Shown: positions 9,191 through 58,981 of the stretch, one piece after another
How the letters are laid out: each line of letters opens with the position of its first letter
Numbering within the stretch: the stretch's first letter is position 1
Origin: a virus
IMG/VR virus record: IMGVR_UViG_3300029775_000166
Span: 19,914 to 83,913 of that record
Reading direction: 5' to 3' (one strand)
DNA: 64,000 nt
Translations under genes and position numbers: made by a program
The notes under the pieces: model-generated
Databases searched by the model: none
The model's input: the letters and a program-made list of their open reading frames with translations, nothing else
Told to the model about the DNA's origin: nothing

Positions 9191-9577
9191 ATGAAGATTA
9201 AATATAGTGAAGCTTTAAACATTTTGGATGCATGTAAGGAATTATTAAAGATTGATATCAATGATATTAAGGTAAGAGTAAAAATTGTTAAAAATATTAG
9301 GAATCTTGAGAATTTATTAAAGACATATACTGAATGTGATTATAATCTGCTAACAAAATATGCTATTAAAGATGATGATGGTAATATAAAGGTGTTTGAA
9401 GATAATACATATAGAATTACACCGAAATATATTCCTGAGTATAACAAGCAAAAAAATGAATTATTAAATGTAGAAGATGAAGTAGAATTATTGCATTTTA
9501 CTATTGATGAATTATCAAAAGTAGATAACATTTCAAACGAAGTTTTACTGAATCTGGCAAATATTATAGATGAATAA
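9191..9577 (+). CDS. Phage protein, probable tail assembly
   Basis: Good RBS; in tail operon. Confidence 0.5.
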   Translation: MKIKYSEALNILDACKELLKIDINDIKVRVKIVKNIRNLENLLKTYTECDYNLLTKYAIKDDDGNIKVFEDNTYRITPKYIPEYNKQKNELLNVEDEVELLHFTIDELSKVDNISNEVLLNLANIIDE

Positions 9578-9616
9578 ATGAGATGTTCTATCTAAGGAAA
9601 GTGTGGTGATATTTAA

Positions 9617-11563
9617 ATGATTAATGCCAACGATAAAATTACAATTGATATTCATAAGAAAAATGAGTATGTATACATATATGCAAAACAATATGACCAA
9701 GATACACGAAAAGTAGAAGTCACAATAACAGATAATGATGAACCGATTGTATTACAAGAAGGTGCAAAGGCTAGAGTTCGTTATTCAAAAAGGGATAAAA
9801 AGGGCGGTTATATTGAAATTGAAAAAGCCGACATAATAAACAATGTAGTTTATCTAACGTTGACTCAGCAAATGTTAACTGCATCTGGAAAAGTAACTAT
9901 TGATATAGAGTTTTATGAATTTGTTACTGGTGAAGATGGTCATGTTACATATCATAATCTGTCTACTGCTACTTTTTATATTTATGTAGCCCCTGCGGCT
10001 ATTGATGAAAAAACAATAATATCATCAAATGAGTTCTCTGTTTTAGTTAATGCATTGGTAAGAACGGAAGAAGCTCTTGCAGAAGCAGAAGCTTTATTAC
10101 CAGTGATTCAAGAAGCAATAGATACTGCAAATTCTACTTTGGATACTATGAATAATCGTTTTGGTGAAATTGAGGAACAATGGCAATATATTCTTGATAC
10201 CACTGATGAATTAATTGAATCTTCCTTAGCTGCTCAGGAAGCTGCTAAACAGGCAGAACAAAGTAGAATAGACGCATCTGATTATGCTACCAATGCATCT
10301 AATTATGCCACTGATGCAAAAGCAAGTGCATTAAGTGCAAGCAATTATGCTGATATTGCTTATGCTCAAGCAGATCGAAGCCAATATTATGCAGAACAGG
10401 CTGAAGCTAGTGCTCTATTAGCGATTGATGCTAAGGGCACTACTATTAAAACACTAGCAGATTTTAATGCTAACATAGATAGTTTTAGAACAAAAAATGA
10501 ACTTATTGCAGAATCAGATTTAACAGCTAATTTGAAAAATAAAATAGACGGAAAAGCGTCTATTGAAAGTGTCAGATTAAAAGATGATCCTATTACTGAA
10601 GCAGACCTTGATTATGCTCTTGCTTTAAAAGTTAATAATGGAGGCGGCGGTGAAGGTGGAGGCGGCGGTATTATTGTTTCTGGTGCACAGATTGATGATA
10701 CTGAAGCTTCATACTCAAAAGTTTATTCATCTCAAAAGACAGTTAGTTATGTTACAACATCAATTGAAAGCGCTATAAGCGGTATTCAAGGATTATCTGA
10801 TAACAACTTTACTACAGCTGAAAAAATAAAATTATCTAGGATTGAGAATAGCGCAAATTATTATGTTCATCCTTTAACTCATCCTGCATCTATTATAACT
10901 ACCACTCCAGAGTTACAATTTATTTCGGAAGTTGAAAAAGAAAATTTTGCAGATAAATATACTAAAGATGAAGTTGATAATTTAATTGCGCAGATATCAT
11001 CCGGTATTATATGGAAACCAGACGTTCCACATTATTCAGATATTGCTATAGTATATCCTAATCCCGAGTTTAACTGGTGTGTTTCTACACAAGATGGTAC
11101 TTTCTTATATAATGGAGAAGAATGGATTAAAATTGGTTCTGGAACAATACCTATTGCTACCACTTCTGCTAATGGTTTAATGTCCGCCGCTGATAAAGCA
11201 AAACTTAATAATATAGAAGCAAATGCTAATAGGTATATACATCCATTAACACACTCAGCAGATATGATTATGGAATCTGAAACTAAACGATTTATTACTT
11301 CTGAAATGTATACCAAGATTGTTGAATTAGATGATTGGATAAACGGACTTTTAAGTGATTATAGATTAAAAACTGTTAAAATATTAGAGACTGATTTAGA
11401 TCAAGGCTTTTTGGATAAGGTAGCTAATGCTGGTGGTACTATTATTAACGACAATGTAATGTCACTAGCTACAACATATAGCTCTGCAAAGATAGAAAGC
11501 TTTGTAAATAATTTTGAAATTTCAGTTGTGGATGATGACGATATATTGAATTTATTTGCATAA
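9617..11563 (+). CDS. BppU-family upper baseplate/tail fibre protein
   Basis: N-terminal YAKQYDQDTRKVEVTI BppU-like domain; coiled coil; HPLTH and LSDNNFTTAEK fibre repeats. Confidence 0.75.
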   Translation: MINANDKITIDIHKKNEYVYIYAKQYDQDTRKVEVTITDNDEPIVLQEGAKARVRYSKRDKKGGYIEIEKADIINNVVYLTLTQQMLTASGKVTIDIEFYEFVTGEDGHVTYHNLSTATFYIYVAPAAIDEKTIISSNEFSVLVNALVRTEEALAEAEALLPVIQEAIDTANSTLDTMNNRFGEIEEQWQYILDTTDELIESSLAAQEAAKQAEQSRIDASDYATNASNYATDAKASALSASNYADIAYAQADRSQYYAEQAEASALLAIDAKGTTIKTLADFNANIDSFRTKNELIAESDLTANLKNKIDGKASIESVRLKDDPITEADLDYALALKVNNGGGGEGGGGGIIVSGAQIDDTEASYSKVYSSQKTVSYVTTSIESAISGIQGLSDNNFTTAEKIKLSRIENSANYYVHPLTHPASIITTTPELQFISEVEKENFADKYTKDEVDNLIAQISSGIIWKPDVPHYSDIAIVYPNPEFNWCVSTQDGTFLYNGEEWIKIGSGTIPIATTSANGLMSAADKAKLNNIEANANRYIHPLTHSADMIMESETKRFITSEMYTKIVELDDWINGLLSDYRLKTVKILETDLDQGFLDKVANAGGTIINDNVMSLATTYSSAKIESFVNNFEISVVDDDDILNLFA

Positions 11564-11578
11564 AATAATAACTTTATT

Positions 11579-11611
11579 AAATGAGAGAATGGCAATTTTC
11601 TCTCATTTTTT
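11579..11611 (+). terminator. Intrinsic terminator
   Basis: AAATGAGAGAA/TTTCTCTCATTT plus T-run. Confidence 0.6.
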
Positions 11612-11628
11612 AGTGAAGGGAGGAAAAC

Positions 11629-12930
11629 ATGGCTATTAAAAAATTATCTGAATTACAAAAAGTTATAGAATTTGATCAAGTAACTAAAATAGTAAATAAG
11701 TTAAAGGCTATGATTAATGGTAAGGCTGATAGCGAGCATACTCATAGTCCTAATGACATAGATGAAACTACTGAAAAAAAGTTCGTTTCTGATACTGAAA
11801 AGAATAAAATAGCTGCTATTAGTATTTCCGGTGATGGTACTAATTTTTTATCTGATGATGGTAATTATAAACCTGCCAATAGTTCAGTTTTGATTACTGA
11901 TGGAGATGGTCAATCGTATTTAGCCAATGATGGTACATATAAACCAATTGATATAAGTGCCACGATTGATGATATAAACATAGCTACTACTTCTACGTAT
12001 AGTTCAACTAAAATTGAAGAAAAACTAGGATTTAAAGTTGATGTAGATAATTGGCATGATCATGCTAATAAAGATCTTCTTGACGATATAACACTCGAAA
12101 GATTTACCGAATGGGATGTAAAAACTGCATTAGTTAAGTCAGATGGTGATGGTCAATCATTCTTAACAAATGACGGTACATATAAACCAATTGCAGGTAT
12201 TTCTAATCCCATTGATGATAGTAATGAAACTTCTGTTGATACTACTCTATCTGCTTCAAAAATAAATCAAAATATAGAAACTGCGGTATCAGATTTAGAG
12301 TTTGACGTAACGCAAAAATTAAATGGTAAAGTAGATGCTGAGATAGGTAAGGGATTATCAGAAAATAATTTTACCACAATTGAAAAAAATAAATTGGATC
12401 TTATTAAAACTGATGGTAGCCCAAAAGAGTTTTTTGCTAGGGATGGTTCATATTATGAAATTAATAATGTAGGGATTAATGATAAATCTCCTACTAACAT
12501 TACTTCATACAGTGGAAGCTATATAGAAAAAAGGATTAATGATGGTATTTTAAATTTAGTGTTGCCAACTCAGAATGACGCTCCCACTATGTGGAAGAAG
12601 AATTTTCAAAACGTTACTGCTGGCGATGTACTTGAGTTGCAAACATCATTTAATTTCAACATTAATAATGCAATTATTCAAGTGTACAAATTTATTGCTG
12701 GTAAAACAGGATTAACAAAAGTAATAAGTGATTTTAAGAGCGGAGAAGCGCAAAATTATATCTACAATTCTGATAATGTAGAATTCTCTGATGTAAATAG
12801 CGGACAGGTTAAAATAAAGGATAACTATACGATTCCTATAAGTATTAATGAAGATGGATTTTATGAAACACAGTTAATATCTAAATCTGATTATATTGAT
12901 ATTGATAGTTTTAATGTGATAGTGAGGTGA
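11629..12930 (+). CDS. Tail fibre protein with internal repeats
   Basis: Four GDG..FL.DDG.YKP-like repeats and YSS.KIE repeats. Confidence 0.65.
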   Translation: MAIKKLSELQKVIEFDQVTKIVNKLKAMINGKADSEHTHSPNDIDETTEKKFVSDTEKNKIAAISISGDGTNFLSDDGNYKPANSSVLITDGDGQSYLANDGTYKPIDISATIDDINIATTSTYSSTKIEEKLGFKVDVDNWHDHANKDLLDDITLERFTEWDVKTALVKSDGDGQSFLTNDGTYKPIAGISNPIDDSNETSVDTTLSASKINQNIETAVSDLEFDVTQKLNGKVDAEIGKGLSENNFTTIEKNKLDLIKTDGSPKEFFARDGSYYEINNVGINDKSPTNITSYSGSYIEKRINDGILNLVLPTQNDAPTMWKKNFQNVTAGDVLELQTSFNFNINNAIIQVYKFIAGKTGLTKVISDFKSGEAQNYIYNSDNVEFSDVNSGQVKIKDNYTIPISINEDGFYETQLISKSDYIDIDSFNVIVR

Positions 12931-12934
12931 TGAT

Positions 12935-14377: not shown

Positions 14378-14390
14378 GGAGGTATCATGA

Positions 14391-19050: not shown

Positions 19051-19458
19051 ATGAATGAACTTTTACAAAACTTATTATATATAGTGCTTACCGCATGTGT
19101 TCCTATTATTGTTACAAGTGCTATTAATTATTTAAAAGCTAAACGTGCTGAGAAACTGCAAAAACTTGATAATGATTACATCAAAGATGTTATTTTAGAT
19201 ACAACTGATATAATATTAAACGCTGTAGACACAGTGTCACAGGTTTATGTTGATGATTTAAAAAAGGAAGGTAAGTTTGATGATGACAAGCAGAAAGAAG
19301 CTCTAAATAAGGCTTTAACGCAAGCTAAAATGCTTATTAATGAAGAGGCTAGTGAACTGATTGTTGAACAGTATAATAACTTAGACGTTTGGATTAGAAG
19401 TATTATAGAATCTTATATTTCCAGCAAGAAAGATAAAAACGTTAAGAAGATAGTTTAA
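19051..19458 (+). CDS. Phage holin (LL-H-like)
   Basis: One N-terminal TM; AVDTVSQVYVDDLKKEG motif; precedes endolysin. Confidence 0.65.
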   Translation: MNELLQNLLYIVLTACVPIIVTSAINYLKAKRAEKLQKLDNDYIKDVILDTTDIILNAVDTVSQVYVDDLKKEGKFDDDKQKEALNKALTQAKMLINEEASELIVEQYNNLDVWIRSIIESYISSKKDKNVKKIV

Positions 19459-19577
19459 TAAAATGCATGTTTAATTCAAAAATACTAATTACATATTTTA
19501 GATCATTTAATTATTTTTTGGGAGTGTTGTAGCTTTATAGCCACTACTCTCTTATTTTTATTGGAAGGAGAACATAT

Positions 19578-20604: not shown

Positions 20605-21495
20605 TTATTTAGCATAATATAGCTCTAAAGCTTTTTTGATAATTTCTTTGGCATTTTTAATATCATTACTAGGTATATATTGCTTTAAATCAATTAGTGA
20701 TATTTTGATAGATGGTAACGATTTGTTTAATTCGTTATTAAAATTGTCTATTACAGTTTTGACATTGATGTTTTCATTGTTTTTTAAAGATAAAGCTTTT
20801 AAGTGTTCTGCTAATTTAATTGGTATACAATAATGCTGTTCATTAATTAAAGAGCTTAATTGCTTTTGTTCGTCAGATTTTAGAAATGATAACGGTACTC
20901 CGGATCTAAACGGTATAGTATTTGTATCTACAAATTCAAGTAATTCATCATTCAAATAGTTGAGCCTTAGATAGTTTCGAATATTTCTTTCTGATAGCTT
21001 ATACTCTGTTTTTAACTTTTGGCACAATGTTCCGAAAGTTCCATTATCTGAATCATCGTTGCCTAAATCAGTACGTTTGCCCTGTTGTTTACTTGATCGT
21101 TGCCTTAATAGTAAGGCTTTAGCTAATTCCGATGGGAGCATATCATCAATACTACGGTTGAACAAATTAGAATCAACCATAATTAACATAGCTTCATTTT
21201 CTGTAATATCTGTTAGTATAACAGATTTAATCTTTTCATAACCAAGTTGTTTATATGCATCAACTCTATTAGCACCGCAAATAATTTTATAGCATCCTCT
21301 ATTTTCAGATGGCATTACTACTATTGGTGAAATTAATCTTTCTTTTACGCTCTCTATAAGTCGTACTTTTTTCTCTCCACTATAAATCTTAAATGGTGAG
21401 TTTTCTATACGTTCAAGTTTGTTTATAGGTAGTTCAACAATAACTTCTTCATTTTTGTTATTTAACAATAATTTATTTAGTCTATCAGTTGCCAT
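20605..21495 (-). CDS. parB: ParB/Spo0J-family partition protein
   Basis: IICGANRVDAY, DSNL..R, HTH LSERNIRNYLRL. Confidence 0.85.
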   Translation of the reverse strand: MATDRLNKLLLNNKNEEVIVELPINKLERIENSPFKIYSGEKKVRLIESVKERLISPIVVMPSENRGCYKIICGANRVDAYKQLGYEKIKSVILTDITENEAMLIMVDSNLFNRSIDDMLPSELAKALLLRQRSSKQQGKRTDLGNDDSDNGTFGTLCQKLKTEYKLSERNIRNYLRLNYLNDELLEFVDTNTIPFRSGVPLSFLKSDEQKQLSSLINEQHYCIPIKLAEHLKALSLKNNENINVKTVIDNFNNELNKSLPSIKISLIDLKQYIPSNDIKNAKEIIKKALELYYAK

Positions 21496-22277
21496 TCCAT
21501 ACTCAGCTCCTTTGCAAAGTTCTGATATGCTATTGAACCCGCATCATTCTTTTTATATTCTATTACAGTCATACCGTTTTTTGGTGCTTCAGCTACTTTC
21601 GTAGCCAATGGTATAATAGTATCAAATACAGTAAAAAATTCACCAAAATCCTCTTTAATAGTATGAATAGTATCCTTACAGTTTCTTGTATTCTTTTGTG
21701 ATTTTGTAATGAGAATACCATCAATTTTTAGTTTTGGATTTAAACGCTTTTGAACTGCTTTTACATTGTAAAGAATTAGCTGTAACCCATTTGAAGATAG
21801 GTAATGCGGTTCTGTTGGTATTATAATACTGTTAGCAGCTACTAAGGCATTAATTGTATAAATACCCCAACTAGACATGCAATCAATAAGTATATAATCA
21901 TAATCATTTTCTATTATCTTTAGAATATCAGTTAGTACGTATTCTCCATCTGTTAATGATCTAAGTACGTATTCATAATCTCCTAGCATACGATTAGACG
22001 GATATAGGTCTATATTATTGACTTTTAGTATTGAATTTCGTATTAAGTTCTCGTCAATATTATGATGGTTGGCAAACATTCGTATAGCATCTGTTAATGT
22101 AGTGTCTAGCTCTTCTGGTGTTGAAAAGCCTAGCGAAACTGTTAAATGATTTTGTGGATCAAAGTCAATGACTAAAGTTTTAAAACCTAACTCTGCTAAA
22201 GCATATGCTGTATTAGCAACCGTTGTAGTTTTACCAACTCCACCCTTTTCATTAGCTACTGCTATTATTTTAGCCAC
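21477..22277 (-). CDS. parA: ParA/Soj ATPase
   Basis: KGGVGKTTT deviant Walker A; IDFDPQ; YDYILID. Confidence 0.92.
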   Translation of the reverse strand: MAKIIAVANEKGGVGKTTTVANTAYALAELGFKTLVIDFDPQNHLTVSLGFSTPEELDTTLTDAIRMFANHHNIDENLIRNSILKVNNIDLYPSNRMLGDYEYVLRSLTDGEYVLTDILKIIENDYDYILIDCMSSWGIYTINALVAANSIIIPTEPHYLSSNGLQLILYNVKAVQKRLNPKLKIDGILITKSQKNTRNCKDTIHTIKEDFGEFFTVFDTIIPLATKVAEAPKNGMTVIEYKKNDAGSIAYQNFAKELSMEWQLID

Positions 22278-22983: not shown

Positions 22984-24585
22984 TCAAATATTCCACTTTA
23001 TATCTATTTTTAATTCTCCATTTTCATTTGCTTCATGAATATAAATACATTCAATAAAATCATTAACAATTTCAAATGTTAATTTTTCATAATTTGCGTA
23101 TTTATGAGCTGCATCCATAAAATTATTAATTTTTTTATTATCAACAGTTAACGATTTCAAGTCATTGCTTAATAATAGATTTTTATCTTTAATTTGTTGA
23201 ATCTCGATATTAATATTTTCCTTAATAGTAATAAAATCATTTTCGTCAACTATCCCGCTAACTTTATCAACATATAAACTTGATATTGATTTATTTAGAT
23301 TATCTACCTTATTTTCATTTTTCTGTAATTGTTTTTTTATACTTAATATTTTTTTATCATTTGTAGCATCTTTATTGAAATGTTTCTTTATTTCTTCAAT
23401 ATTATCACCATATTCTAGCATTGATTTAATTTGTTTTTTTATTTCTAAATCCACATATTTTTCAACTGTATTATATCTAATTGAATGTCTAGTACATTCC
23501 TTATATTTTGTTTTTTTCCCTAATTGACACATAAAATAATCATATCCACCCGCTAATCTACCACTAGTTTTTGTCATGGCAGAATTGCAATCAGCACATC
23601 TTATTTTACCGGAAAATAAATGTGGTTGGAACTTTTGTCCAGATGTTGTTTTACATGTCTTACGTCTTATTTGTAATAATTTTTGTGTTTTTTCAAATAC
23701 TTCTTTTGAAATTATTGGCTCATGATTGTTTTCTATTACTACCCATTCATCTTTTGGTGCGACAACAACTTTTTTACTCTTATAACTAACCTTTTTTTCT
23801 CTTCCTTGAATAAGTGTGCCTATATAAACTGGATTATTTAATATACGTTTAACAGTAGTATATCCCCATAATCCTTTTTTTGAATAAATTTGACTGTTTG
23901 GATTGTAAAATTTAAACCCTTGATTTTTTTTATGTTCAGTAGGTGTAGGTATTTTCATTTCACTTAATTTTTGGGATATAATATTTACACCATACCCTTG
24001 TAAACTAAGATCAAATATAAGTCTTACAACTTTGGCGGCTTCCTCATCAATAATTATTTTGTGTTTATCATTTGGATCTTTTATATATCCATACGGTGCA
24101 AAACCTCCCAAGTATTGACCAGCTTTCATTTTTTGTCTGAACGTTCTTTTAATATTTTCAGACAAATCTTCAAGATACCATTGATCGACTAATCCATTAA
24201 TCTGACTGTTTTTCTTAGTTGCTTTTATATTAGTATCAATGTTATCAACTATACTTATAAATCTTATTCCCCATTCAGCAAAACATCCATTAATGTATTT
24301 TTCAACTACTTCCATACTTCTAGCAAATCTTGCTTGAGTTTTACATAAAATAATATCAAACTTTCCAATTTCAGCATCCTTAATCATTTTTATCCACTCT
24401 GGTCTATTTGTGTCAGATCCAGCATAATCATCATCTGCATAAATATGGTATATCTGCATTTCATGAGAAATAGCGTAATCAACTAACATCATTTTTTGAT
24501 TTTGGATACTAGCACTATCATCACCTTTATTTAGCTTGTCTTGATCCTCTTTCGACAACCTTACATAAATAGCTACTTTATACAT
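22984..24585 (-). CDS. Large serine recombinase (integrase)
   Basis: YVRLS catalytic Ser, DDDYAG..RP..M, RFAR, recombinase domain, CADC..C zinc ribbon, coiled coil. Confidence 0.92.
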   Translation of the reverse strand: MYKVAIYVRLSKEDQDKLNKGDDSASIQNQKMMLVDYAISHEMQIYHIYADDDYAGSDTNRPEWIKMIKDAEIGKFDIILCKTQARFARSMEVVEKYINGCFAEWGIRFISIVDNIDTNIKATKKNSQINGLVDQWYLEDLSENIKRTFRQKMKAGQYLGGFAPYGYIKDPNDKHKIIIDEEAAKVVRLIFDLSLQGYGVNIISQKLSEMKIPTPTEHKKNQGFKFYNPNSQIYSKKGLWGYTTVKRILNNPVYIGTLIQGREKKVSYKSKKVVVAPKDEWVVIENNHEPIISKEVFEKTQKLLQIRRKTCKTTSGQKFQPHLFSGKIRCADCNSAMTKTSGRLAGGYDYFMCQLGKKTKYKECTRHSIRYNTVEKYVDLEIKKQIKSMLEYGDNIEEIKKHFNKDATNDKKILSIKKQLQKNENKVDNLNKSISSLYVDKVSGIVDENDFITIKENINIEIQQIKDKNLLLSNDLKSLTVDNKKINNFMDAAHKYANYEKLTFEIVNDFIECIYIHEANENGELKIDIKWNI

Positions 24586-25868: not shown

Positions 25869-27077
25869 TTATTTTGCCTCCACCTCTAGTGTAATTAATT
25901 CTTTTGAATATGGTAGTGAACGTACCCAATTTACAAAATCAACTGACCATTCAGTAAGTTTATGACTTCTTCTCTGAAAATACATATTACGTAAATTAGC
26001 ATAAGATAATGTAACAGTTCTTGTTTGCAACCAATTCCTCGGTAGTTTTTGAATTACAGTTTTCCATACTTCTTTATCTTTTGTTATGAGCCATTCATCC
26101 CTTAATTCATTTAATTCATCAATTGTTTTAAGAAAAGTTTCGTATTCATTCTCGTAGCCTTCACCATAATTATATTTATTATTTAATATTGAGCTAATGG
26201 TTGTATGTGATACATTATATAATTTCGCTAATTCCATTCTTGATATATCTTCTGTATTATATCGTTTAATAATTTCATCTCTCTGTTCTTTAGATAATTT
26301 CCCTTTATATGTATATATAGGTACTGGTTGTAATTTGTGGTCAACTGCATGTTGTTGATTATTGCTTCTTGTGCACCATTCTAAATTTTCTACTCTATTA
26401 TCTAATTTATTACCATTTTTATGATTAACCTCAGGGAGATTTAATGGATTAGGAATAAATGTGATTGCAACTAATCTATGCACCCTTTTGTCTTTTTGTT
26501 TTCCGTTTTCCTTTATACCTACTTTTAAATAATTATCAGGTGTAAGAGTATTTGTTAATATTCTTTCTTTCCATATTCTATTATGTGTAGTAATTATTTG
26601 CTTTCTCTTTACCCTTCCTTGATTGCTAACAATAAAATTAGGATTTATGGGATATTCTTTCCATTCTTCTGTATCCTCATCTATTTTATTTGGTTTTTGT
26701 ATAACTTCTTTTTTATATCCTCTTATTCCGTTTAATTCAAACATGTCTGGTTGAAATGGTTTAGACATGATTTTATGCATTGTACTTGTACTATTTGCAA
26801 CAGTTCCTATTTTATACGTATCCATTTCAGACCACCAATATAACGGTGCTGTAATATCAACGCTTACAAAAATTTGGCGCATAAATTTAGAATGTTCATT
26901 ACCAGCTAAAATAAGCCTTTGGGCAAGTGCTAAATCATTTTCTCCAATGTGATAACTTGTAATTGCCCCTTTATATTTAACAGTATGGCTATCACTTTTA
27001 TGCCAACTTTCAAGTGGATTTCTCATTCCTCTAATTGCGCCGTTAAAATTAAAAACTTCTGTATTTTCAAATTTCAT
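25869..27077 (-). CDS. ThyX-like phage protein with in-frame NUMOD4-HNH endonuclease insertion (about aa 115-314)
   Basis: DITAPLYWWSEMDTY..STSTMH and RTVTLSYANL.N..FQR..HKL halves flank VHRLVA..F..VNHKNG.KLDNRVENLEW. Confidence 0.75.
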   Translation of the reverse strand: MKFENTEVFNFNGAIRGMRNPLESWHKSDSHTVKYKGAITSYHIGENDLALAQRLILAGNEHSKFMRQIFVSVDITAPLYWWSEMDTYKIGTVANSTSTMHKIMSKPFQPDMFELNGIRGYKKEVIQKPNKIDEDTEEWKEYPINPNFIVSNQGRVKRKQIITTHNRIWKERILTNTLTPDNYLKVGIKENGKQKDKRVHRLVAITFIPNPLNLPEVNHKNGNKLDNRVENLEWCTRSNNQQHAVDHKLQPVPIYTYKGKLSKEQRDEIIKRYNTEDISRMELAKLYNVSHTTISSILNNKYNYGEGYENEYETFLKTIDELNELRDEWLITKDKEVWKTVIQKLPRNWLQTRTVTLSYANLRNMYFQRRSHKLTEWSVDFVNWVRSLPYSKELITLEVEAK

Positions 27078-29317: not shown

Positions 29318-29398
29318 ATTACTATTTATTTGTTGTAAGTTATACTTTATTATTACATTAGGAAGTGATTATTTTTAATAGAATTAGAGTTTCATCTT

Positions 29399-30662: not shown

Positions 30663-30728
30663 TATATTATTCTCCTTTTATAATAGTTTAATATTATTAG
30701 CATTACTATAAAACATTCCTTTTATATA

Positions 30729-31115: not shown

Positions 31116-31165
31116 TTTCTCATTCCCTTCTTAAAATTTAATATTTTTAACATTAATATCTTGTT

Positions 31166-31582
31166 TTATGTTATATTTTTTACTATATACCATCCAAACG
31201 GATATACATTTTCTTTTATGTATCCAAATCTTTTAAGACCCTTTTCGTAAACATGAAATCTTTTACTGTTTTCTCCTCCAATAATAATTTTATTTTTCTT
31301 TAATTTATTCGGTACAATCAATGTTTCAAATTCTAGTATCTTATCTTTTGCCCATATCAATCCATCGAGTCCACATCTCCCAGTTGACTGCAATGTTAAA
31401 TTATAAGTATCTTTTCCCGTTATGTATCCTCTAATCTGCTTCTTTGAGTTTCCTATAGCAAAACACACATTCCAAAGTATTCTATTGTCTTCATCCCACT
31501 TTTCGAATCCAATTCCGCACACTTGACCATTTTTCAAATCTTTGTATTCATACCACATTTCTTCATCCATATCGTATACCAA
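31166..31582 (-). CDS. Hypothetical phage protein
   Basis: TTG start with RBS. Confidence 0.5.
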   Translation of the reverse strand: MVYDMDEEMWYEYKDLKNGQVCGIGFEKWDEDNRILWNVCFAIGNSKKQIRGYITGKDTYNLTLQSTGRCGLDGLIWAKDKILEFETLIVPNKLKKNKIIIGGENSKRFHVYEKGLKRFGYIKENVYPFGWYIVKNIT

Positions 31583-31638
31583 ATAATATCACCCTCTCTC
31601 AGTCTATAATCACATTAAATATCACTTTGATATTATCA

Positions 31639-32496: not shown

Positions 32497-32716
32497 TTTA
32501 AATCCTCTCTTTCTTTACTTACCATCAAACCTCTATTTTATTGGATATTTAATACAGCAATATATTTTCCATTACAGTAATTTATAGTTTGTATATCATA
32601 ACCTATAGCAACATATTCATTAATAAATTGTTCTAAATTATCTATAAAAGAACTTTTAATTATTTTTATTTTATTTTTTAATGTAACATCCTGCATTTCA
32701 ATTATCCTCTTTATTA

Positions 32717-33756: not shown

Positions 33757-33865
33757 TTTATCACCTCCTTTAAATACAAAATAAAATAAAATGCCTCTTT
33801 TATGTTATAATTATTACTATATATTGTTTTTTATTATATTTTGACCACTATATCTTGTATGTAAT

Positions 33866-37029: not shown

Positions 37030-37039
37030 AATTAGCTCC

Positions 37040-37319
37040 TCCTAATAAATACTCTGCTAAAAGCAGGTGGTATGTACTTTGTCTTACTATTACCATAAGA
37101 TTTTTCCAACTTCAACTCGACAATGATAATATAGCTTACATGTATATATCACAGGGCTTTTCTTATTCCAACCCAACTTAAATATATACGATAGAGCAGT
37201 GGTCTGTTGCGTCAACCAAAGGTATCATAACTATACTATCGTAGCTATTGTTTCTAATAGCTTAGTCTGGTGAACTATTTAATGGAAGCCACGAAGTCTT
37301 TAGCTTCGTGGTAGTTCAC
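37040..37319 (-). ncRNA. IscB omegaRNA (HEARO-like)
   Basis: GTGAACTACC hairpin..GTTCACCAGACTAAG..CTACGAT..GACGCAACAGACC..CATTGTCGAG motifs upstream of iscB. Confidence 0.85.
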
Positions 37320-37384
37320 ATGGTTCACATATATCCTTCTTTCTGAATAATTATCCTCTTTATATATTATTATTACATTAGACA

Positions 37385-37699
37385 CTAATACTGATATCTT
37401 ATAGGTATTTCTTTCATACCAACCTCTTTAAGTACTAAATATCTTGTATATCCATCAACTAATATGTATTTTGTTTTATTTCTTTCATTAATAATAGGTG
37501 AAACGCTTACAGGAATATCAACATACCCATGATCTACATAGAAACGTCTAGCTCTTACCATTTTCCAATAAGCAGGTTTACTTTTTAATTTAAGAAACTC
37601 TCTAGGGATAATAATATCATTGATATGTATTACTGCATCTGTTCCATATGGTTCCTTATAAAATATGTAATGTAGTCTTTCTTTTAATTTTACTTTCAT
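37385..37699 (-). CDS. Small ParB/Srx-like domain protein
   Basis: YILVDGYTRYLVL motif. Confidence 0.5.
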   Translation of the reverse strand: MKVKLKERLHYIFYKEPYGTDAVIHINDIIIPREFLKLKSKPAYWKMVRARRFYVDHGYVDIPVSVSPIINERNKTKYILVDGYTRYLVLKEVGMKEIPIRYQY

Positions 37700-37841
37700 A
37701 AATAAGTTTCTCCTTCCATCTTATATAACAAAAAATATTGTGTTATAATTATTCATTAGGTTTATATATTTCCTTTGTTGCTAGAATAACTATAGCACAA
37801 TAACTGTAGTGTGTCAAGTATATTATTATTACATTAGGCAA

Positions 37842-39185: not shown

Positions 39186-39431
39186 TCATTTAGAATTTAT
39201 ACTTTTTAGCTTGTTAATTACATAGTCATAACTAAAATGAGGTATTGTACAATTTGAGCAATCCTTTATCCCGTTGGAGAGAACACTATAGTTCCCTCCG
39301 CAATCGGAATATTGATAAAGAGGACAGTAACATAACATACAGTTAAAGTCTTTTTCTTTGCCTTTTGGTACTTTATGACATGGGAAATATCCACATTTTA
39401 TGTTTTGAAAAAATTTATAATTATCACTCAT
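39186..39431 (-). CDS. Cysteine-rich small domain protein
   Basis: C.YFPCH..FNC..CYCPLY..CGGN..KDCSNC.IPH; TAATG-coupled to nrdJ stop. Confidence 0.8.
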   Translation of the reverse strand: MSDNYKFFQNIKCGYFPCHKVPKGKEKDFNCMLCYCPLYQYSDCGGNYSVLSNGIKDCSNCTIPHFSYDYVINKLKSINSK

Positions 39432-40906: not shown

Positions 40907-41222
40907 CAATAGTGTTATCGTAAAGGTTTTTTATCCTTTACTTCTGGAGGTTTCCCTCATACTCAATACCAGCAATGTTGAGATACGTCTGTTAATTCAG
41001 ACCAGTTCAGCATATATTTTCTTTGATAATCTAATCTTTTAAAGAAATTTATATTGATTATATTGTCAAAGTTCCGTACTCTTGGATGGATTATTGCTCT
41101 CTTGTTGCTCACCATCTATGCGTTACAAACCCCTATGATGTAGTGGGTTCTCGGTATTACCGTATTTTTCAACTTAGGCTTCACCGATTTTACGAAATTT
41201 TTTACATGAGCCTAGTATGTCA
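40907..41222 (-). other. Group I intron (316 nt, no ORF)
   Basis: 5'SS after U with P1 AUGUGCU/GGCUCAU U.G pair; P7 GCAUA/UAUGC; terminal G; splicing restores NPCA-EEP. Confidence 0.88.
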
Positions 41223-42017
41223 AGCACATGGATTAACACCAGCATATTCAAAGTCAGAATATTCACTTAGTAAATTCCATCCTTTAATTCTGTCCCAAAA
41301 TAACATTCCTGGTTCTGCATAATCCCAATTCATTTGACTTAATTTATTAAAAATTTTATATGCGTCTATTTCCTTTGTTATTGTTTCTTTATTTTCTAAA
41401 TTTGTAAAACTAAGGGTAAACATTTCTTTGTTTTTAACGGCTTCCATAAAATCGTTTGTGATTTTTATAGATATATTTGCTTTTGTAACTCTATTTAAAT
41501 CTGACTTTACTTCAATAAATTCCTCTAAGTCTGGATGAGTGCAATCTATTGAAATCATTAAAGCCCCCCTACGTCCGTTTTGGCTTATCGTACCTGTAAT
41601 ATCAGAATATAAATCCATAAAAGAAACTGCACCACTTGAATGTTCTGCGGCATTATTTACTTTTGCATTGTTAGGTCTAAGTTTACTAATATCAATACCG
41701 CAACCACCGCCATATGAAAATGTCCTTGCTAACTTGCTGGCACAGTCAAAGATTGATTCAATATTGTCATCAGGAGGAGCAATTACATAACAATTACTTA
41801 GTGTAACTTTTTTACCTAATTTATCCAATCCTCTATTAGATAAAATCCTTCCACCAAATAAAAACTTTTTATTTATAATTAACTCTCGCAATTCTTTATT
41901 ATTATTTGATACTCTATCTAACCATTCATCAAATGTTTCGTTGTTATAACGATACTTTTTCTCCCAAATATCAATTCCAAGCTGATTATTTTTGCCAAGC
42001 CATTCTTCTACTTCCAT
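41223..42017 (-). CDS. nrdJ: Class II ribonucleotide reductase, exon 1
   Basis: FLFGGRIL, SNCYV, GGGCGIDIS.LRP, RRGALM, AEPG, NPCA. Confidence 0.9.
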
Positions 42018-42410
42018 ACTTTTATCCTTTCTTCTTATGTTATTTAATATCTATATCATCCTACGATGTAGGATTATATTTTATTTATACATTAGGTCTA
42101 TCCTTATAAGGCTTACTATCATTGCAATCCTATATATTGCATTTATTCCGCAATTGCATTCCCATTTTCATCTAATCTCGTGTAGCCGCCACCAAATGTA
42201 CCGCCATTACTTTCGATAAACTCGATAAATTTAGTCCAAAATTCGTCAAATGACTTTTCAGGTGGTAATTCAATAACTCCGTTCACTTGATGCTCATTCC
42301 TCATTTAATTACCTACTTTTTAATTGTCAATTTACTCAAAATTTGCTTCTATAAATTTCTTTATATCTTCATAATCATATCCGCCATAATCATCAATGTC
42401 TGTTTCTAAT

Positions 42411-42571: not shown

Positions 42572-42857
42572 ATTTCTTACAAGTCCATACTGCGCCTTTT
42601 TGTTTACCGGCAACACTATAATCCTGACATGGACTCCCTCCAACAATCATATTAAATGGCTCTAATTTTGTTTCATCTACCTTTGTGATATCGCCTAAAT
42701 TTATGCTTTTATTAAAAAGCTGCAACCCTATGAAACAATGGTATTACAGAGGAGGAAAATACTTGAAATGCTATAAACTAGTTAATTTTTGTGAATTTGA
42801 CAAATACGCTATCGATAGTTACTGTGCTATACATAATGTGAATAAAAGCATAAATTT
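42477..42857 (-). pseudogene. Cytosine-5 methyltransferase remnant, partly inverted and fused to TnpB tail
   Basis: GDITKVD..GGSPCQD on minus; YKLVNFCEFDKYA..IHN on plus inside the inverted segment; motif I absent. Confidence 0.8.
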
Positions 42858-43440: not shown

Positions 43441-43735
43441 ATCAATTTCCCTTCCATATATTTTTGTTAAATAACTAATTTACTTCTTTTATTATCTGAT
43501 TTCTATTTTTCTTGTATTAATGTTTTTTCATCCACATACCAAATTGCTAACTTATTTAAGTCTAGCAATCCTAAGAATCGCATATCCTTATTAAATACTC
43601 TCCATCCATGCTTTTTACACTTTTTGTCAGTTTCTAATACAGCACTATACTCATGTTCATATTCTATTAAGTCTCCATTTTCTTCTTTCATTCTTCATTC
43701 TCCTATGCTAATATAAAAACATTATTTAATTTACA

Positions 43736-43996: not shown

Positions 43997-44062
43997 CTTT
44001 CTTTTTTAATGAAAATCTTAATTCATCTTTTCTTTACAAGCTTGAATATTTATTCTTATATG

Positions 44063-44744: not shown

Positions 44745-45095
44745 AACTTTCTCCTTTCTACATAATCAATTCTCTATTCATGTTACATTTTAATAGTGTA
44801 TTCTACTACGTTCGCTGGATAAAACTTACCATTAATCATTTCTGTCTGGAAATAAATAACATCATGTAACCCTCTTCTATTAAATAAATAATTAATTCTT
44901 TCGTGATTTAATATTGGATATTCTCCACTTCTACCCGTTTCGTAAATTGAACACCTTAATATTGTTCCGTCTTTTAGTTTTACAATAATCATAATTCTCA
45001 CTTCCTTTCTATTATCGAATGAAACGTAGTTTTGGTGTGGTTTTTATATCTACATATAGCGCATTTAAACACGACAACACTATATGTAGTACATA

Positions 45096-46376: not shown

Positions 46377-46420
46377 TATATCTCCTTTCTAATTCTAAAA
46401 TATCACATGAAATATTTGAT

Positions 46421-46579
46421 TTATTGAAATGATGTTTCAGTCCAATCATCAGCATTAAGTATAAATTTTTGATTATGATAATCGTATTCCACCTGTTCTA
46501 AAGCATCTTCATAACTTATCGCTTTAACTTCAATTACTCTTTCTAATACTTCTTTTACAGTGATTTTATATGTATTCAT
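46421..46579 (-). CDS. DpnD/PcfM-family small protein (52 aa, not in ORF track)
   Basis: Y.I..KE.LERVIEV.A.S.EDA..V..Y..F.L.ADD. Confidence 0.65.
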   Translation of the reverse strand: MNTYKITVKEVLERVIEVKAISYEDALEQVEYDYHNQKFILNADDWTETSFQ

Positions 46580-47232: not shown

Positions 47233-47301
47233 TTAATCATTCCTTTCTTCATTTCATAGTTTAATATATGTATTTATCCAATCAAATCATCCTTTTATTG
47301 C

Positions 47302-48288: not shown

Positions 48289-48363
48289 TTATTATCCTTT
48301 ATAGTTTCATATTTTTATTAATCACATCAAACTGCAAATTGATTCGATTTTTCAATCGATTTA

Positions 48364-49623: not shown

Positions 49624-49817
49624 TCCTTAAATTTATATAATTTAACACTATTCCAAAACCTCAAATATGTATTATGGTATTTGCAGATATAATCTACTAG
49701 GCGAAACCCACGCCTTCTATCTTGTTTTATCAAGAATACTTGCGAGTGTAATTTAAATTACACTCTATAGTTTTATATTGTTAATATCGCATGAAATCGT
49801 TCTTTTATCTTGATTAT

Positions 49818-50980: not shown

Positions 50981-51024
50981 AATTAATCCTTTCTTATCGT
51001 ATAAAAGCGTTATTCTCTGTGCTT

Positions 51025-51300: not shown

Positions 51301-51344
51301 TTTGATTTTCCTTTCTAATTATCCAATCAAAGTAAAGTTCTATC

Positions 51345-51596: not shown

Positions 51597-52592
51597 GAGA
51601 TTCTCCTTTCTAACATTCTAATGAAATGATATTTCTATGCTATTTCTTTACTATGTAATAATTTTCCACTTCCGCCAGTAACAGCTCCATATTTTTCATT
51701 CATGTAGTCACCAATGTAATTTTCGATATCAATTAAAATCTCATTAGCATCATCAATAAATATTTCTTCTGGTAAAAATATTCTACTTACTACATATAAT
51801 CCGATTGCTTTATCATCCATAATTATTACTCCTCATCATCACTTTCTTCCGTAATATCAATTATTTTTACACCATTAGCAAAATCTACCACATTGGTAAA
51901 CAATTCTTCTAAATTACCCTCTAAATCATCTTGATAATCTGGATTTATTTCAGTAAGTTCAATTATGTATTTCTTATTCATCGTTTAATATCTCCTCTCT
52001 TTACTTAGTAAATATGCATTCGTATTCTCTCTTCCAGTCACCACCATCATTAATCTTCTGCATTACTCTTAATCCCATATCTTCTTTAATATCTTTAATC
52101 CACAATCTAATATTGTAATGTATCTCAGAGTATCTATCATCTTCTTTGTAATTATGTAATACTGCTTCATGATATAAAGCTTCATATTTACAAGCTAATT
52201 TCTCTAGTCGTTTTACGAATGTATAATCATTTCTTATGAACTTTCTCATAATATCACCTCTTTTCAAATAAGGTACATATTTTATTTGTATTACTTGAAT
52301 TATTGCATTTTTCTTCTTTAATACAATAGTGGCACAAATTTTCATTTTTCTTAAAACAAGCAACCATTCCTATAGTATTTCTTTTTGGACAATTGTCGTA
52401 ATTCCAACATTCTTTACTACATATCTTATTTATTTGTTCTTCATTAGCTTTATATTTAATTTTAATATCACTTGAATCACCTTCACTAAATATTTCACCA
52501 GTTTTCATATCTACTATTTCAAAATGGATTACTTCTTTTTTATTAAATTCGAATATATCACTCACCCCCTAAAACCACTTAAAATTGATAAC

Positions 52593-53213: not shown

Positions 53214-53308
53214 TTACTCACATCCTTTCTTACCATCAAACGCACATTTCATTTTATTATTTATATAAACTCCCATTCTGTGTCATAATGTTACTAGGAG
53301 GTGTTACA

Positions 53309-53587: not shown

Positions 53588-53591
53588 TGTG

Positions 53592-53804: not shown

Positions 53805-54297
53805 AATTCATCTCCATCCCCATACATACAAATTTCATTCATATATTCACATTTACTACAATAGTTGTCCCAATAATTATCATATTCTTCTTGTGTTATT
53901 TCACCATTTTGAAGTTTATAATATAACTCTACATTTTTAAATTCACACATTTCTGACATATCTTGTTTTTGCATAATGGATGCCCTTTCTTAAAGTAGAA
54001 TATAGTTTTGGTCGTATTATTTAATTAATTTCACTCCAATCGTGAACTTGACCGCACATATGTTTCTTTGAATTTTTTCTTATAGGTTCACCACAGTAGC
54101 TACAAAAATAAGTATACTTATGAATCAACTCTTTCTTTTTACTATTATAATCAGATTCGTCACTAATTAATGGTTTTGTTGGCGTTGCTTTACTTAGTTT
54201 TATTTCTTCTTTTTCTAATTTGCTCGTTAATGCTTTTATCTTCTGTTTCAGTTTTTCTACGTCCATCTTATCTCTCCAATCTAATAGAATTACTCTT

Positions 54298-54840
54298 TTA
54301 TTTCCTTTTAAATAAGAACCACAAATCTTTATCAATAATATCTCTACCATAAAGGTAAATCCTCACTTCATTATCTTTCTTAGCAAAATAAATCCTTTCA
54401 TTTTTACTTACAGGCAACTTTCTAAATTCTTTCAACATATTTCTTGATATAATATTCACTCGTTTTTGTGACATACCCCAATTGCCATCAAAATAAGGTT
54501 CTTGCCAATTACAAAATTGTATTCTTTTCGGTTCGTATTCTTCATACATTTTATTTACTTTTTCATAAGCTTCTTTTAATTCTGCCCTTGTATGAGGTTG
54601 TTTTGAATATTTAAAATCTTCATTTTTATCTATTTCCTCATAATCCATATACATACTAAATAATTCTTCATCAAAATTTGGTTCGCTATCATAAAAATTT
54701 TCACAAGCTTCCACCACGTAATATTTATTAAAAAGATTATCTAAAAGCTTATTAGAAAGTGCTTTATGCATAAATGAATATCCATTTTCAATATCTGTTC
54801 TTAATTCTTTTTCGATTAATTCTTTATCAATACAAATCAT
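54298..54840 (-). CDS. Hypothetical phage protein
   Basis: RBS, co-oriented. Confidence 0.5.
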   Translation of the reverse strand: MICIDKELIEKELRTDIENGYSFMHKALSNKLLDNLFNKYYVVEACENFYDSEPNFDEELFSMYMDYEEIDKNEDFKYSKQPHTRAELKEAYEKVNKMYEEYEPKRIQFCNWQEPYFDGNWGMSQKRVNIISRNMLKEFRKLPVSKNERIYFAKKDNEVRIYLYGRDIIDKDLWFLFKRK

Positions 54841-54869
54841 TATTTTTTCCTTTCGTTTAGAATATTTTA

Positions 54870-55385: not shown

Positions 55386-55425
55386 TTTTCACTCTCCTTT
55401 ATAATTTTGAAATCCAGATTCTATA

Positions 55426-55968: not shown

Positions 55969-56062
55969 TTACGTTCTTTCCTCCCAATTTAAAATAAAAC
56001 TTCACTTTTATTCAGTCTCCTAAATCATTAAATTTCTTCTAATTAAACCAGTACTTTTCATA

Positions 56063-57471: not shown

Positions 57472-57759
57472 CTTACATCACTCCTACTTATAGAGTATGT
57501 GTAATATCGAAAATCGTATGTAATTTGCTATTGAATGGTTGTTTTATATTGTTTCAAACCTTATGTTCTCCTCTATACATTCATAGAAAATATTTACACG
57601 ATCGCAATTTTTTAATCCTTTTAAACATTCTTTCAGGATTACTACATAACGGACAATTACAGCTAAACCATAAGGCAGATTTAATTCTTTTTATTTCTTC
57701 ACTCGTTCCACTAATTTTTAACATTTTATTTTTCCTTTCTAAACAAATCAGAGTTTGAT

Positions 57760-58278
57760 TCATACTTCCCCATCTTCAAATTTAGTAGAATTGTGCATTT
57801 GCTCTCTAATTTTACCTATCTTTTCCTTAGAGTAGTTGTTGCCAACTTTGGTATGTTTAGTAATAAATTTACGTAAGAATTTAATAATATCACTAACTAA
57901 ATATACCAAACCGTACCAGACAAAGAAAACACCGACTATATACGTAGTCTTTTGAGATACGGATAATTCATCAATTTTAATTACTGGCATGGCATCAGCA
58001 GCCATGAATAATATCATAGATAATAATAAAATAATTCCAGCAATTTCTGTTATCCACCATGTAATACTTAACCCTGTAACTTTTTTCATAAAATCCATCT
58101 TTTTAACTTCAGTATATGTAGATTCATTAATTCCATCTCTTGCTGCACTATTCTCAGGAATACATTCATTGCATGAGTTGCCAACCGTACAATCAAAATA
58201 ATTGTTTTCAATATCACTTTTAGGGGCTTCCACAACTATATCTTTATTACAATATTGACACTTACATTTAACTCTCAT
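57760..58278 (-). CDS. Membrane protein with N-terminal Cys motifs
   Basis: CQYC..C; two TMs. Confidence 0.5.
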   Translation of the reverse strand: MRVKCKCQYCNKDIVVEAPKSDIENNYFDCTVGNSCNECIPENSAARDGINESTYTEVKKMDFMKKVTGLSITWWITEIAGIILLLSMILFMAADAMPVIKIDELSVSQKTTYIVGVFFVWYGLVYLVSDIIKFLRKFITKHTKVGNNYSKEKIGKIREQMHNSTKFEDGEV

Positions 58279-58290
58279 TTTTCTCCTTTC

Positions 58291-58440
58291 TGCATGGAAC
58301 TTATGGGTTAAGCCTAAGAGCTTACTTGTGTTTCCACGTTGGGTATTTCCTCGACTTTACGTTAGGAGCAGGGTTACTCGTTTGCTTATGTTTAATACAC
58401 ATCTACTTCTAACTATCCTTTTTCGCTATGTACCCATTCA
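58291..58440 (-). ncRNA. Candidate structured RNA
   Basis: Closing ATGGGT/ACCCAT helix, nested GTTAG/CTAAC and AGCA/TGCT, GTG-GAAA-CAC, TAAGC/GCTTA. Confidence 0.45.
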
Positions 58441-58470
58441 AAACTACTAATATTAATGTTTCTTTATATA

Positions 58471-58648
58471 TTATGTGGGTTAGGATTTGCGCCTAACATA
58501 TATTCTTACGAATACTTATTGCTTAACATTTTGCTTCGCACTGCCGAGGAAGTAGACTAATTCTCGTGCTGTGCGGTTAAAAATCCGCACCGCTATTCAT
58601 TCTCGCTACCCGACAGAATAATGTGTCTACCTATTCCACCACCACTAA
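58471..58648 (-). ncRNA. tRNA-like RNA with expanded anticodon domain
   Basis: Leu-type D-arm GTGGAATAGGTAGACAC; T-arm TTAGG-CGCAAAT-CCTAA; acceptor-like TTAGTGG/CCAC(A)TAA; about 130-nt insert. Confidence 0.55.
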
Positions 58649-58666
58649 ATATAGTTACAAATAATT

Positions 58667-58945
58667 TCAATTTTCTTCTTTAAGCCTTTTTTTGATAAGA
58701 TTATTCATCTCATTAATATCTTCTGCTGAAATTGATTCACTTAATTTCTTACGATTGTTATAAGATTGTCGAGTTGATATGTTTTTATTCAAGTATGAAT
58801 CTGTTTTATATTTATCTAGTTCCTTTCCACAATTAGGACAATACTTAATTGGTGCATTCCAGATATAATACCCACCAGCTATTAGCAATTCATAAATTTC
58901 TATTTCTTCTGTCTCTTTATTCAGTTCATTACAATATTTACACAT
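58667..58945 (-). CDS. Small zinc-binding protein
   Basis: MCKYC..IKYCPNCG. Confidence 0.6.
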   Translation of the reverse strand: MCKYCNELNKETEEIEIYELLIAGGYYIWNAPIKYCPNCGKELDKYKTDSYLNKNISTRQSYNNRKKLSESISAEDINEMNNLIKKRLKEEN

Positions 58946-58981
58946 TACTTATCTCCATTTCTAATCAAAGACTGGATTAAT

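Follow-up and report, generated by a model that had tools for sequence, protein, structure and literature searches.

Does a short palindrome that recurs at gene ends in a phage genome only sit where neighbouring genes meet, or are genes exchanged there? This question was raised by a window of 64,000 nucleotides (bases 19914-83913 of the 109,453-bp single-contig viral record IMGVR_UViG_3300029775_000166), in which an earlier sequence-only reading had picked out about 30 quasi-palindromes of the form ATnRAW-N6-WTYnAT and had proposed that they were the core sites of an integron- or shufflon-like cassette system. The motif is real, its two arms are exactly spaced, it is placed at gene ends, and it is conserved from the Bacillus phage SPbeta to clostridial and staphylococcal relatives. 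The junctions of mosaic genomes coincide with it. With a confidence slightly above even, we regard the motif as a lineage-specific module-boundary element, the conserved arms of which would be preferred crossover points and which would be read as duplex DNA by a putative dimeric phage protein. The motif is apparently undescribed so far; it was not mentioned in the open-access text of the SPbeta papers searched.

The window contained 35 exact matches to ATNRAWN6WTYNAT, compared with 17.7±3.7 in whole-window dinucleotide shuffles. Twenty-one of these were intergenic or overlapped a stop codon, and 14 were located in coding DNA at background density. Intergenic DNA makes up 11% of the genome and contained 26 of its 52 matches. 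As whole-window shuffles ignore the higher A+T content of intergenic DNA, two further controls were used. Dinucleotide shuffling of each intergenic segment separately yielded 3.2±1.8 matches (maximum of 11 in 1000 shuffles) against the 26 observed (z about 12), a large enrichment over an AT-matched background. When the spacer was varied from 0 to 35 nt in intergenic DNA, 26-29 arm pairs were present at N6 and 1-12 at any other spacing; this roughly fivefold peak was confined to intergenic DNA, and none appeared in coding DNA. A secondary spacing of N16-17, corresponding to one extra helical turn, was represented by two examples and gave no statistical peak. A long-armed master site of the dif or attI kind was looked for and not found.

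The motif might also have been a chance product of AT-rich DNA and the stop-codon context A-TAA-A. The G+C content of the record is 29%, the stop codon lies in the left arm at 8 of 36 sites, and the 14 coding matches in the window do not exceed background. Both the shuffles and the spacer scan nevertheless refuted a chance origin, and the motif was found again in cassettes not seen before and in four further phages, so that next to no weight is left for this explanation. A stop-codon artefact was rejected as well, because the coupling of the left arm to a right arm at N6 persisted where the stop codon lay 1-9 nt upstream.

For placement, the 26 intergenic sites of this genome and 10 from relatives were aligned (36 sites); genes were called by a crude open reading frame (ORF) procedure of our own. 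At 30 of the 36 sites, the distance from the last base of the upstream stop codon to the motif start was -11 to +9 nt, in agreement with the claimed nearness to stop codons, and the stop codon coincided with motif positions 2-4 at 8 of them. The following start codon was located 8-60 nt downstream. Sites on the plus strand are ATAAAT-gagatg-TTCTAT (9574..9591), where the stop codon of gene 9191-9577 forms motif positions 2-4, and ATAAAA-tgcatg-TTTAAT (19458..19475), directly 3' of the stop codon of gene 19051-19458. The sites given in the following are all on the minus strand. A stop codon lies within the left arm of ATAAAA-caagat-ATTAAT (31152..31169), ATAAAA-tagagg-TTTGAT (32524..32541), ATAGAA-atatca-TTTCAT (51621..51638; TAG) and ATAAAA-gagtaa-TTCTAT (54284..54301), whereas ATTAAT-ccagtc-TTTGAT (58964..58981) is directly 3' of a TGA stop. 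Further sites are ATCAAA-gtgata-TTTAAT (31614..31631), ATTAAA-taatgt-TTTTAT (43713..43730), ATGAAT-taagat-TTTCAT (44009..44026), ATGAAA-tgtgcg-TTTGAT (53235..53252), ATAAAA-gtgaag-TTTTAT (55994..56011) and ATAAAA-caacca-TTCAAT (57530..57547). Eight of the ten positions named in the sequence-only reading (47298, 49808, 51343, 51638, 56011, 32541, 9574 and 19458) were exact, and the other two, 11560 and 18125, had one mismatch. Its observation that the sites are dense among small accessory ORFs and absent from translationally coupled core junctions also held. In the novel cassettes of a related contig (L004), DNA that had been outside the view of that reading, the motif was present at 6 of 7 gene junctions.

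The alignment revealed two conserved positions outside the search pattern, an A at +22 in 31 of 36 sites and the mirror-image T at -3 in 20 of 36. Position 7 avoided A (A in 3 of 36 sites). The full unit is therefore about 26 bp long and reads T-N3-ATnAAA-N6-TTTnAT-N3-A. Six base pairs per arm were strongly conserved, and the outer arm positions were unconserved apart from T(-3) and A(+22). At one site, ATAAAA-gaggca-TTTTAT (33786..33803), the palindrome was extended to 10 of 11 bp per arm.

A palindrome between a stop codon and the next Shine-Dalgarno (SD) sequence could act in RNA, as an endoribonuclease site, a weak factor-dependent terminator or pause, or an element for translation re-initiation. 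The motif always lay within transcribed operons between these two signals, in the Clostridium difficile phage phiCD211 it ended 2-10 nt before the SD sequence, and some copies in SPbeta carry only a stem_loop annotation in the deposited record. However, the RNA folding energy of the motif with 4 nt on each side averaged only -1.4 kcal/mol, compared with -0.8 kcal/mol for shuffles, and the arms paired with each other in the minimum-energy fold at just 14 of 36 sites. The free arm positions did not covary: pair 3/16 formed 11 Watson-Crick pairs (11.3 expected) and was mismatched in about 70% of the sites, and pair 6/13 formed 24 (24.7 expected). An RNA hairpin, a terminator and an RNase III site are unlikely and were rejected on the weak folding energy and the missing covariation, which favour recognition of DNA by a protein; in the simplest reading, a putative dimer would recognize two half-sites at an exact spacing in duplex DNA. 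The distance from motif to SD sequence, read by eye, was moreover variable in this phage (7-20 nt), and phages of the same hosts lacked the motif, which does not fit a signal to the host RNA machinery. An intercistronic RNA signal is accordingly very improbable. The Rfam scan gave a single match, to HEARO RNA, and none that mapped to the motif.

A sigma-70 or extended -10 promoter was also rejected. There was no -35 element, the right arm has a T at the invariant -11A position, and the -7T is weak. A -10-like box can be read 3' of the right arm with A22 as -11A, but transcription would then start at or past the SD sequence at most sites. Promoter-like matches between 43 and 60 kb were not enriched (95 compared with 119±11 in shuffles).

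The same motif was present in other phages. The strict form ATAAAA-N6-TTTTAW occurred in intergenic DNA of SPbeta 20 times at N6, compared with about 0.2 at other spacings (p 3e-35), 10 times in c-st (p 2e-12), 8 times in Goe13 and 9 times in SPbetaL4. The core TAAAA-N6-TTTTA was found 25 times in SPbeta, 16 times each in c-st and phiCD211 (p 1e-18 for the latter), and 7 times in Staphylococcus phage 6ec, against 0.7; the form in phiCD211 is TTAAAA-N6-TTTTAA. When all palindromic 5-mer arm pairs with spacers of 3-9 nt were ranked, TAAAA/N6 came first in SPbeta, c-st, phiCD211 and 6ec and tied for first in the present phage. Unrelated phages of matching hosts gave 0 (SPO1, Bacillus subtilis), 1 (K, Staphylococcus) and 0 (phiC2, C. 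difficile). These phages share hosts with motif-positive phages and yet are without the motif, which excludes a general host transcription or translation signal and points to a reader encoded by the phages.

Mosaic junctions were compared with the motif in the 26-kb early regions of SPbeta, Goe13 and SPbetaL4, using a crude BLAST procedure of our own for junction calls. Junctions were present in 6 of 7, 7 of 7 and 6 of 9 gaps containing the motif, but in only 6 of 30, 4 of 29 and 4 of 26 other gaps (Fisher p = 0.002, 4e-5 and 0.007, respectively). Pooled, 19 of 23 motif gaps and 14 of 85 others carried a junction (odds ratio 24). Within motif gaps, 19 of 22 junction ends fell inside the 25-nt motif window, compared with a fraction of about 0.31 expected from gap length. 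That the junctions end at the motif, and not just somewhere in the gap, argues against mere selection for intact genes.

For the lineage of the phage itself, 32 loci (L001-L032) from fermentation and other metagenomes were collected by exact-protein look-ups in metagenome assemblies. No close relatives were found in the phage collection or in IMG/VR by megablast, blastn or two protein pattern scans, and a pattern scan with the recombinase described below detected just two IMG/VR contigs, of identical lineage. The loci were mosaics, in which blocks of 99.5-100% identity were interrupted by swapped cassettes. In the following, x|y denotes a joint between motif positions x and y. Downstream of the gene for a 52-aa DpnD-like protein, an HNH gene replaced the PAPS reductase gene, and the sequences diverged at 12|13 (46413) of ATAAAT-caaata-TTTCAT (46407..46424). 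The 112-aa gene was followed by a TnpB, PAPS reductase or D12 methylase gene; ATGAAA-GAACGA-TTT was shared and divergence occurred at 15|16. Divergence was at 12|13 downstream of a 75-aa gene and at 18|19 downstream of a 107-aa gene. Downstream of a 191-aa gene, a 2.9-kb insertion of four genes (L003, L006) started at 8|9 of the degenerate site GTAAAA-TTTATGC-TTTTAT (42841..42857).

Joints were also visible where a cassette was shared and the upstream DNA differed. Homology then started at 3|4 for the TnpB cassette and at 4|5 for the 91-aa cassette; for the 112-aa gene, the left arms differed and the spacer was common (6|7). At ATAAAA-gaacga-TTTCAT (49791..49808), relatives had the same spacer after the 112-aa gene, with homology from 3|4. 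At ATAGAA-ctttac-TTTGAT (51326..51343), the homology of the 91-aa cassette began in the left arm, and in relatives this site was joined to a 148-aa gene at 18|19. About 9 of 13 joints were located in the motif region, which spans about 40% of a typical linker. The apparent positions varied (0|1, 3-6, 8|9, 12|13, 15|16 and 18|19), and the sites flanking one cassette had no common spacers. In phages of the SPbeta family the arms are invariant, so that joints at 0|1, 6|7 and 18|19 would all fit a crossover anywhere in an arm. Insertions of IS605 and IscB/HEARO elements were events separate from the cassette swaps. Contig ends were considered as additional breakpoints, since they fit k-mer branching at motif sites, but were too indirect and were not used. 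The proposal that each unit of ribosome-binding site (RBS), ORF and site is an exchangeable cassette was borne out by these swaps between near-identical relatives. The expected mapping of breakpoints to the site was confirmed in part: joints coincided with the motif, but their position within it was not fixed, and several were outside any motif.

The reading that we prefer may be summarized as follows. Two half-sites, T-N3-AT-n-AAA and its mirror image, would be kept exactly 6 bp apart in the linker from a small gene's stop codon to the following RBS, where a dimeric protein encoded by the phage would read them on duplex DNA. The arms would serve as crossover points for the exchange, insertion and deletion of single genes or short runs of genes, and each RBS-ORF unit would thereby become a cassette. 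The motif would promote recombination and not merely mark a place where it is tolerated; the ends might be joined by a site-specific enzyme, for which the YomM-type recombinase described below would be the best candidate, or by annealing of short homologies at a conserved regulatory site.

Several observations weigh against this reading. The identity offered by an arm, 6-7 nt, is short for annealing-based recombination. Cassettes may carry the motif along with them, which would reverse the causality. The three SPbeta-family phages used in the junction test are not independent, and several of the comparison phages are represented by partial genomes. In the lineage of the present phage, the excess of joints in the motif region is modest, suggestive but not strong, and at the level of gaps the association was not significant by our tally (a junction in 4 of 13 motif gaps and in 3 of 15 others). 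Some joints were outside the canonical motif, namely at 53596 (at a stop codon), at 50988 (at the next RBS), at the ATG of the 112-aa gene, and at 45044, where homology to those relatives that carry the HNH cassette begins at the ATAAAA of a long-spacer variant (ATAAAA-N17-TTTCAT-TCGAT, 45019..45044). Finally, no binding protein was identified, and in the partial genomes compared, no protein was common to every motif-positive phage and missing from every motif-negative one.

The coincidence of motif and junctions might instead arise because the motif is purely regulatory punctuation, a roadblock or silencer resembling a stoperator and bound by a dimer of the repressor type, and because selection preserves units of stop codon, linker and RBS. 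The phage encodes ParAB, an integrase and an MrpR-like repressor and is on this basis predicted to be temperate, and a palindrome that forms no RNA structure would suit such a protein. The stoperators of Cluster A mycobacteriophages, which are bound by gp71 in L5, are asymmetric sequences of 13-14 bp that are oriented with transcription and specific to immunity groups (PMC6550527). As in those phages, where 20-30 sites are distributed over a temperate genome of the integrating or parA type and mostly occupy short gaps within operons (PMC6550527), tens of sites, 26 of them exact and intergenic, occupy such gaps here. The gene-end motif differs in being palindromic; its core is nearly identical across distant phages whose operators differ, unlike immunity-specific sites. 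Selection for intact units is also disfavoured by the position of the junction ends, 19 of 22 of which fell within the motif, and by the much lower frequency of junctions in gaps without it.

The master repressor is, in addition, a poor candidate for the reader. MrpR of SPbeta has the fold of a tyrosine recombinase but has lost recombinase function, and binds SPBRE just 5' of about ten promoters (PMC10516654; bioRxiv 10.1101/2022.10.21.513154). Chromatin affinity purification sequencing (ChAP-seq) of SPbeta MrpR gave ten peaks only, all at SPBRE promoters (PMC10516654). In our own scan, 9 of the 10 regions bound by MrpR contained the SPBRE core, in the form AATATGTATA. SPBRE resembles the gene-end palindrome in being a repeated intergenic element of the same phage family with a reader of the tyrosine-recombinase fold. 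It differs in being 15 bp long, promoter-associated and present in about 10 copies, and the palindrome lies outside the MrpR peaks (PMC10516654). The present phage encodes an MrpR/YopR-like repressor (G000:C1:104015-105031; PF22822, E 1e-18) and carries a second intergenic motif, CCTAATGTAATAATAATATA, in at least 13 copies genome-wide. These are located in long gaps, often directly 5' of strong TTGACA-17-TATAGT promoters, among other places at 59476-59504, 37800-37840, 37360-37385, 29330-29360 and 42030-42060 of the window. This CCTAATG motif is the obvious analogue of SPBRE and probably the operator of the MrpR-like repressor, and the gene-end palindrome was therefore rejected as the MrpR operator. 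One of its copies, ATGAAA-ctctaa-TTCTAT (29378..29395), starts 3 nt past a stop codon and is followed about 15 nt downstream by a CCTAATG operator-like motif. Taken together, a purely regulatory role appears rather unlikely.

The sequence-only reading had placed the responsible recombinase outside the window, and a predicted tyrosine recombinase was indeed found there, at G000:C1:12326-13369, directly upstream of the gene for a 2322-aa tape-measure protein. It shares 30% identity over its full length with YomM of SPbeta (E 2e-28), which is encoded at the same genomic place. In alignments to XerA (4a8e) and XerH (5jjv), the arginine (GARKSE), HSLRH (HxxR), GW and the tyrosine of IY were kept, so that this is by sequence an Xer-family recombinase with intact catalytic residues, and competence is predicted. 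The enzyme might use the motifs as core sites with a 6-bp overlap, and occasional recombination between two of them would excise, insert or swap cassettes in the manner of attC or pdif sites. The geometry of the motif is that of an Xer site, with A-rich and T-rich inner arms around exactly 6 bp, extended by T(-3) and A(+22). The apparent joints are placed within an arm or where arm and spacer meet, and an identity of 6 bp is too little for ordinary homologous recombination. Homologues of YomM are encoded by all five motif-positive phages, and SPO1 and K have neither the recombinase nor the motif.

However, Lactococcus phage WRP3 and Enterococcus phage nattely have a recombinase of this family without a motif peak, so that the association (5 of 5 compared with 2 of 5) is at best necessary but not sufficient. 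A total of 185 phage records contained homologues of the YomM family, among them records of 6ec-like (Staphylococcus), 949-like (Lactococcus), Lactobacillus and Enterococcus phages that look strictly lytic. The position of the joint is not fixed, and the different spacers of sites flanking a cassette would block most tyrosine recombinases. The recombinase scored 72.6 bits against a cut-off of 220 bits for XerA/integron integrases (NF040815), far below such equivalog cut-offs. YomM of SPbeta has HxxK instead of HxxR, and no description of its function was found in the open-access literature searched. The gene is part of the tail module, so far from the window that its nearest motif site is at least about 27 kb away, and a prophage encoding ParAB needs a recombinase for dimer resolution anyway. 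No link was found between the sites and either this enzyme or the serine recombinase at 22984-24585.

A perfect inverted repeat of 17 bp, similar to the motif, is also relevant to this enzyme. Its copies (42697-42713 and 42841-42857) flank an inverted segment of 127 bp, the opposite strand of which encodes the N-terminus of a C5-methylase remnant; downstream, this remnant is fused to a C-terminal fragment of TnpB. As read from the sequence, the frame would again continue into GDITK...GGSPCQ if the segment were flipped. The left copy (42841-42857) doubles as the edge of the 2.9-kb insertion in L003 and L006. The flipped state had no match in the JGI metagenomes or IMG/VR, but neither orientation was matched there.

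Short recombinase-type sites bound gene cassettes in the pdif modules of Acinetobacter plasmids, which carry XerC/XerD sites, and in integrons, which carry attC sites. The present system is similar in having arms around a 6-bp spacer, variable spacers, a plasmid-like replicon and an element-encoded Xer-like recombinase. Its 6-bp spacing is exact, but only 6 bp per arm together with T(-3) and A(+22) are conserved, compared with about 11 bp in dif arms, and the sites do not alternate in orientation as in pdif modules. As in integrons, single-gene cassettes without promoters are co-oriented, and their content was swapped among contigs of 99.5-100% identity. In contrast to integrons, there is no attI, Pc or other IntI-specific feature, and the site measures 18 bp and not the 57-141 bp of a folded attC. 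A shufflon such as that of Rci and its 19-bp sfx sites is not supported, because all genes are co-oriented and no inverted gene segments occurred in L001-L032 save the one fixed 127-bp piece. Use of the motifs by the YomM-family enzyme as its core sites is on balance unlikely. The same low standing applies to the more far-reaching proposal that SPbeta-like phages carry a dedicated cassette-exchange system, in which a recombinase of this family with a heterology-tolerant 6-bp overlap would shuffle anti-defence and DNA-modification genes. If true, these phages would possess their own counterpart of integrons or pdif modules. A signal for the YonO RNA polymerase was rejected as another possible function of the motif, since no YonO homologue was detectable in this phage, c-st, phiCD211 or 6ec.

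A module-boundary element of the kind preferred here has a counterpart in T4-type phages, in which short conserved intergenic elements lie between small non-essential genes in plastic regions (PMC2839356; PMC4122927). These promoter-early stem-loops (PeSLs) combine sigma-70 promoters with terminator hairpins and recombine by homology over tens of bases (PMC2839356; PMC4122927). As with PeSLs, for which modular shuffling has been proposed, the joints of insertions, deletions and replacements between close relatives lie in the element. The element described here differs in being only 18 bp long, anchored to stop codons and without a promoter or stable hairpin, and in occurring in temperate SPbeta-like phages of Firmicutes. 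It bears on the old question of whether the neat gene-boundary mosaics of phages arise via conserved linkers or via illegitimate recombination at random, with selection afterwards. Here, the joints across a family of large temperate Firmicute phages are marked by a short palindrome of exact spacing. The family includes the toxin-converting clostridial phage c-st and the genetically tractable SPbeta of B. subtilis, and the occurrence of the motif in SPbeta makes the mechanism directly testable. The cassettes comprise methyltransferases, nucleases, TnpB elements and small ORFs of the defence and counter-defence kind, and the element could explain rapid re-assortment of such genes.

Some of the sites are accompanied by a further repeat. 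The 12-mer ATATnAAACTAT was present in seven copies, all on the sense strand (30686, 47259, 48304, 49770, 49823, 50468 and 50761). It is located 17-18 nt past the right arm at five sites, namely 30708, 47281, 48326, 49791 and a variant with a 7-nt spacer near 50783. Three of these have a long form: ATAAAA-ggaatg-TTTTAT (30708..30725), which is followed by ATATTAAACTAT 18 nt later, ATAAAA-ggatga-TTTGAT (47281..47298), and ATCAAT-ttgcag-TTTGAT (48326..48343), downstream of TnpB. The two orphan copies (49823 and 50468) lie at the two ends of the D12 methylase ORF, and copies were also found at cassette ends in relatives (the HNH gene of L004).

The gene content supports an assignment to the SPbeta/c-st group, which was predicted from Pfam and NCBIfam matches. 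Genes of the window are on the plus strand up to about 20.5 kb (tail and other late genes) and on the minus strand thereafter, with every gene between 20.6 and 64 kb on one strand. The ParA/ParB genes are located at 20605-22277, followed by the gene of a large SprA-like serine recombinase (22984-24585, minus strand) with Resolvase, Recombinase and Zn_ribbon_recom domains, which is probably the integrase. An SPbeta-type block of replication and recombination genes is present and includes a RecJ-like exonuclease; a DnaE-type polymerase as well as NAD-dependent and ATP-dependent ligases are also encoded. Nucleotide metabolism is represented by a split ribonucleotide reductase, a dUTPase, a ThyX-like protein and a guanylate kinase. 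Several DNA methyltransferases, TnpB and IscB elements, a YopQ-like protein and a MazF-like toxin complete the set.

The large subunit of the ribonucleotide reductase is encoded by two ORFs, 39431-40909 and 41220-42017, which are about 300 nt apart. The 402-aa ORF at 25869-27077, labelled ThyX-like at first, contains a NUMOD4-HNH endonuclease module. A gap of 388 nt (58278-58667) is richer in G+C and looks structured; it had been taken for a tRNA mimic and gave no Rfam match at the gathering threshold. The HEARO RNA (RF02033, 102 bits; 37105-37319) belongs to an IscB-type element at 35768-37319 together with an RRXRR-HNH ORF (35768-36802). At the corresponding place, the relative L001 has 3.4 kb of small genes and just a 3' remnant of the element. 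An IS605-type element (Y1 TnpA and TnpB) was located at 5823-7393 of the window, at L012:11103-12673 and at L004:145-1290. Its insertion point differed among relatives, being 55001 within a 171-aa gene in L012 and 54436 in L004. One contig of 46.6 kb links the tail region to the accessory region via this element; the link may be a genuine rearrangement or may have arisen in assembly. In the leader 5' of a solo TnpB gene (49635-49668 of the window), a tandem duplication of 34 nt was present in L001 and L003-L008.

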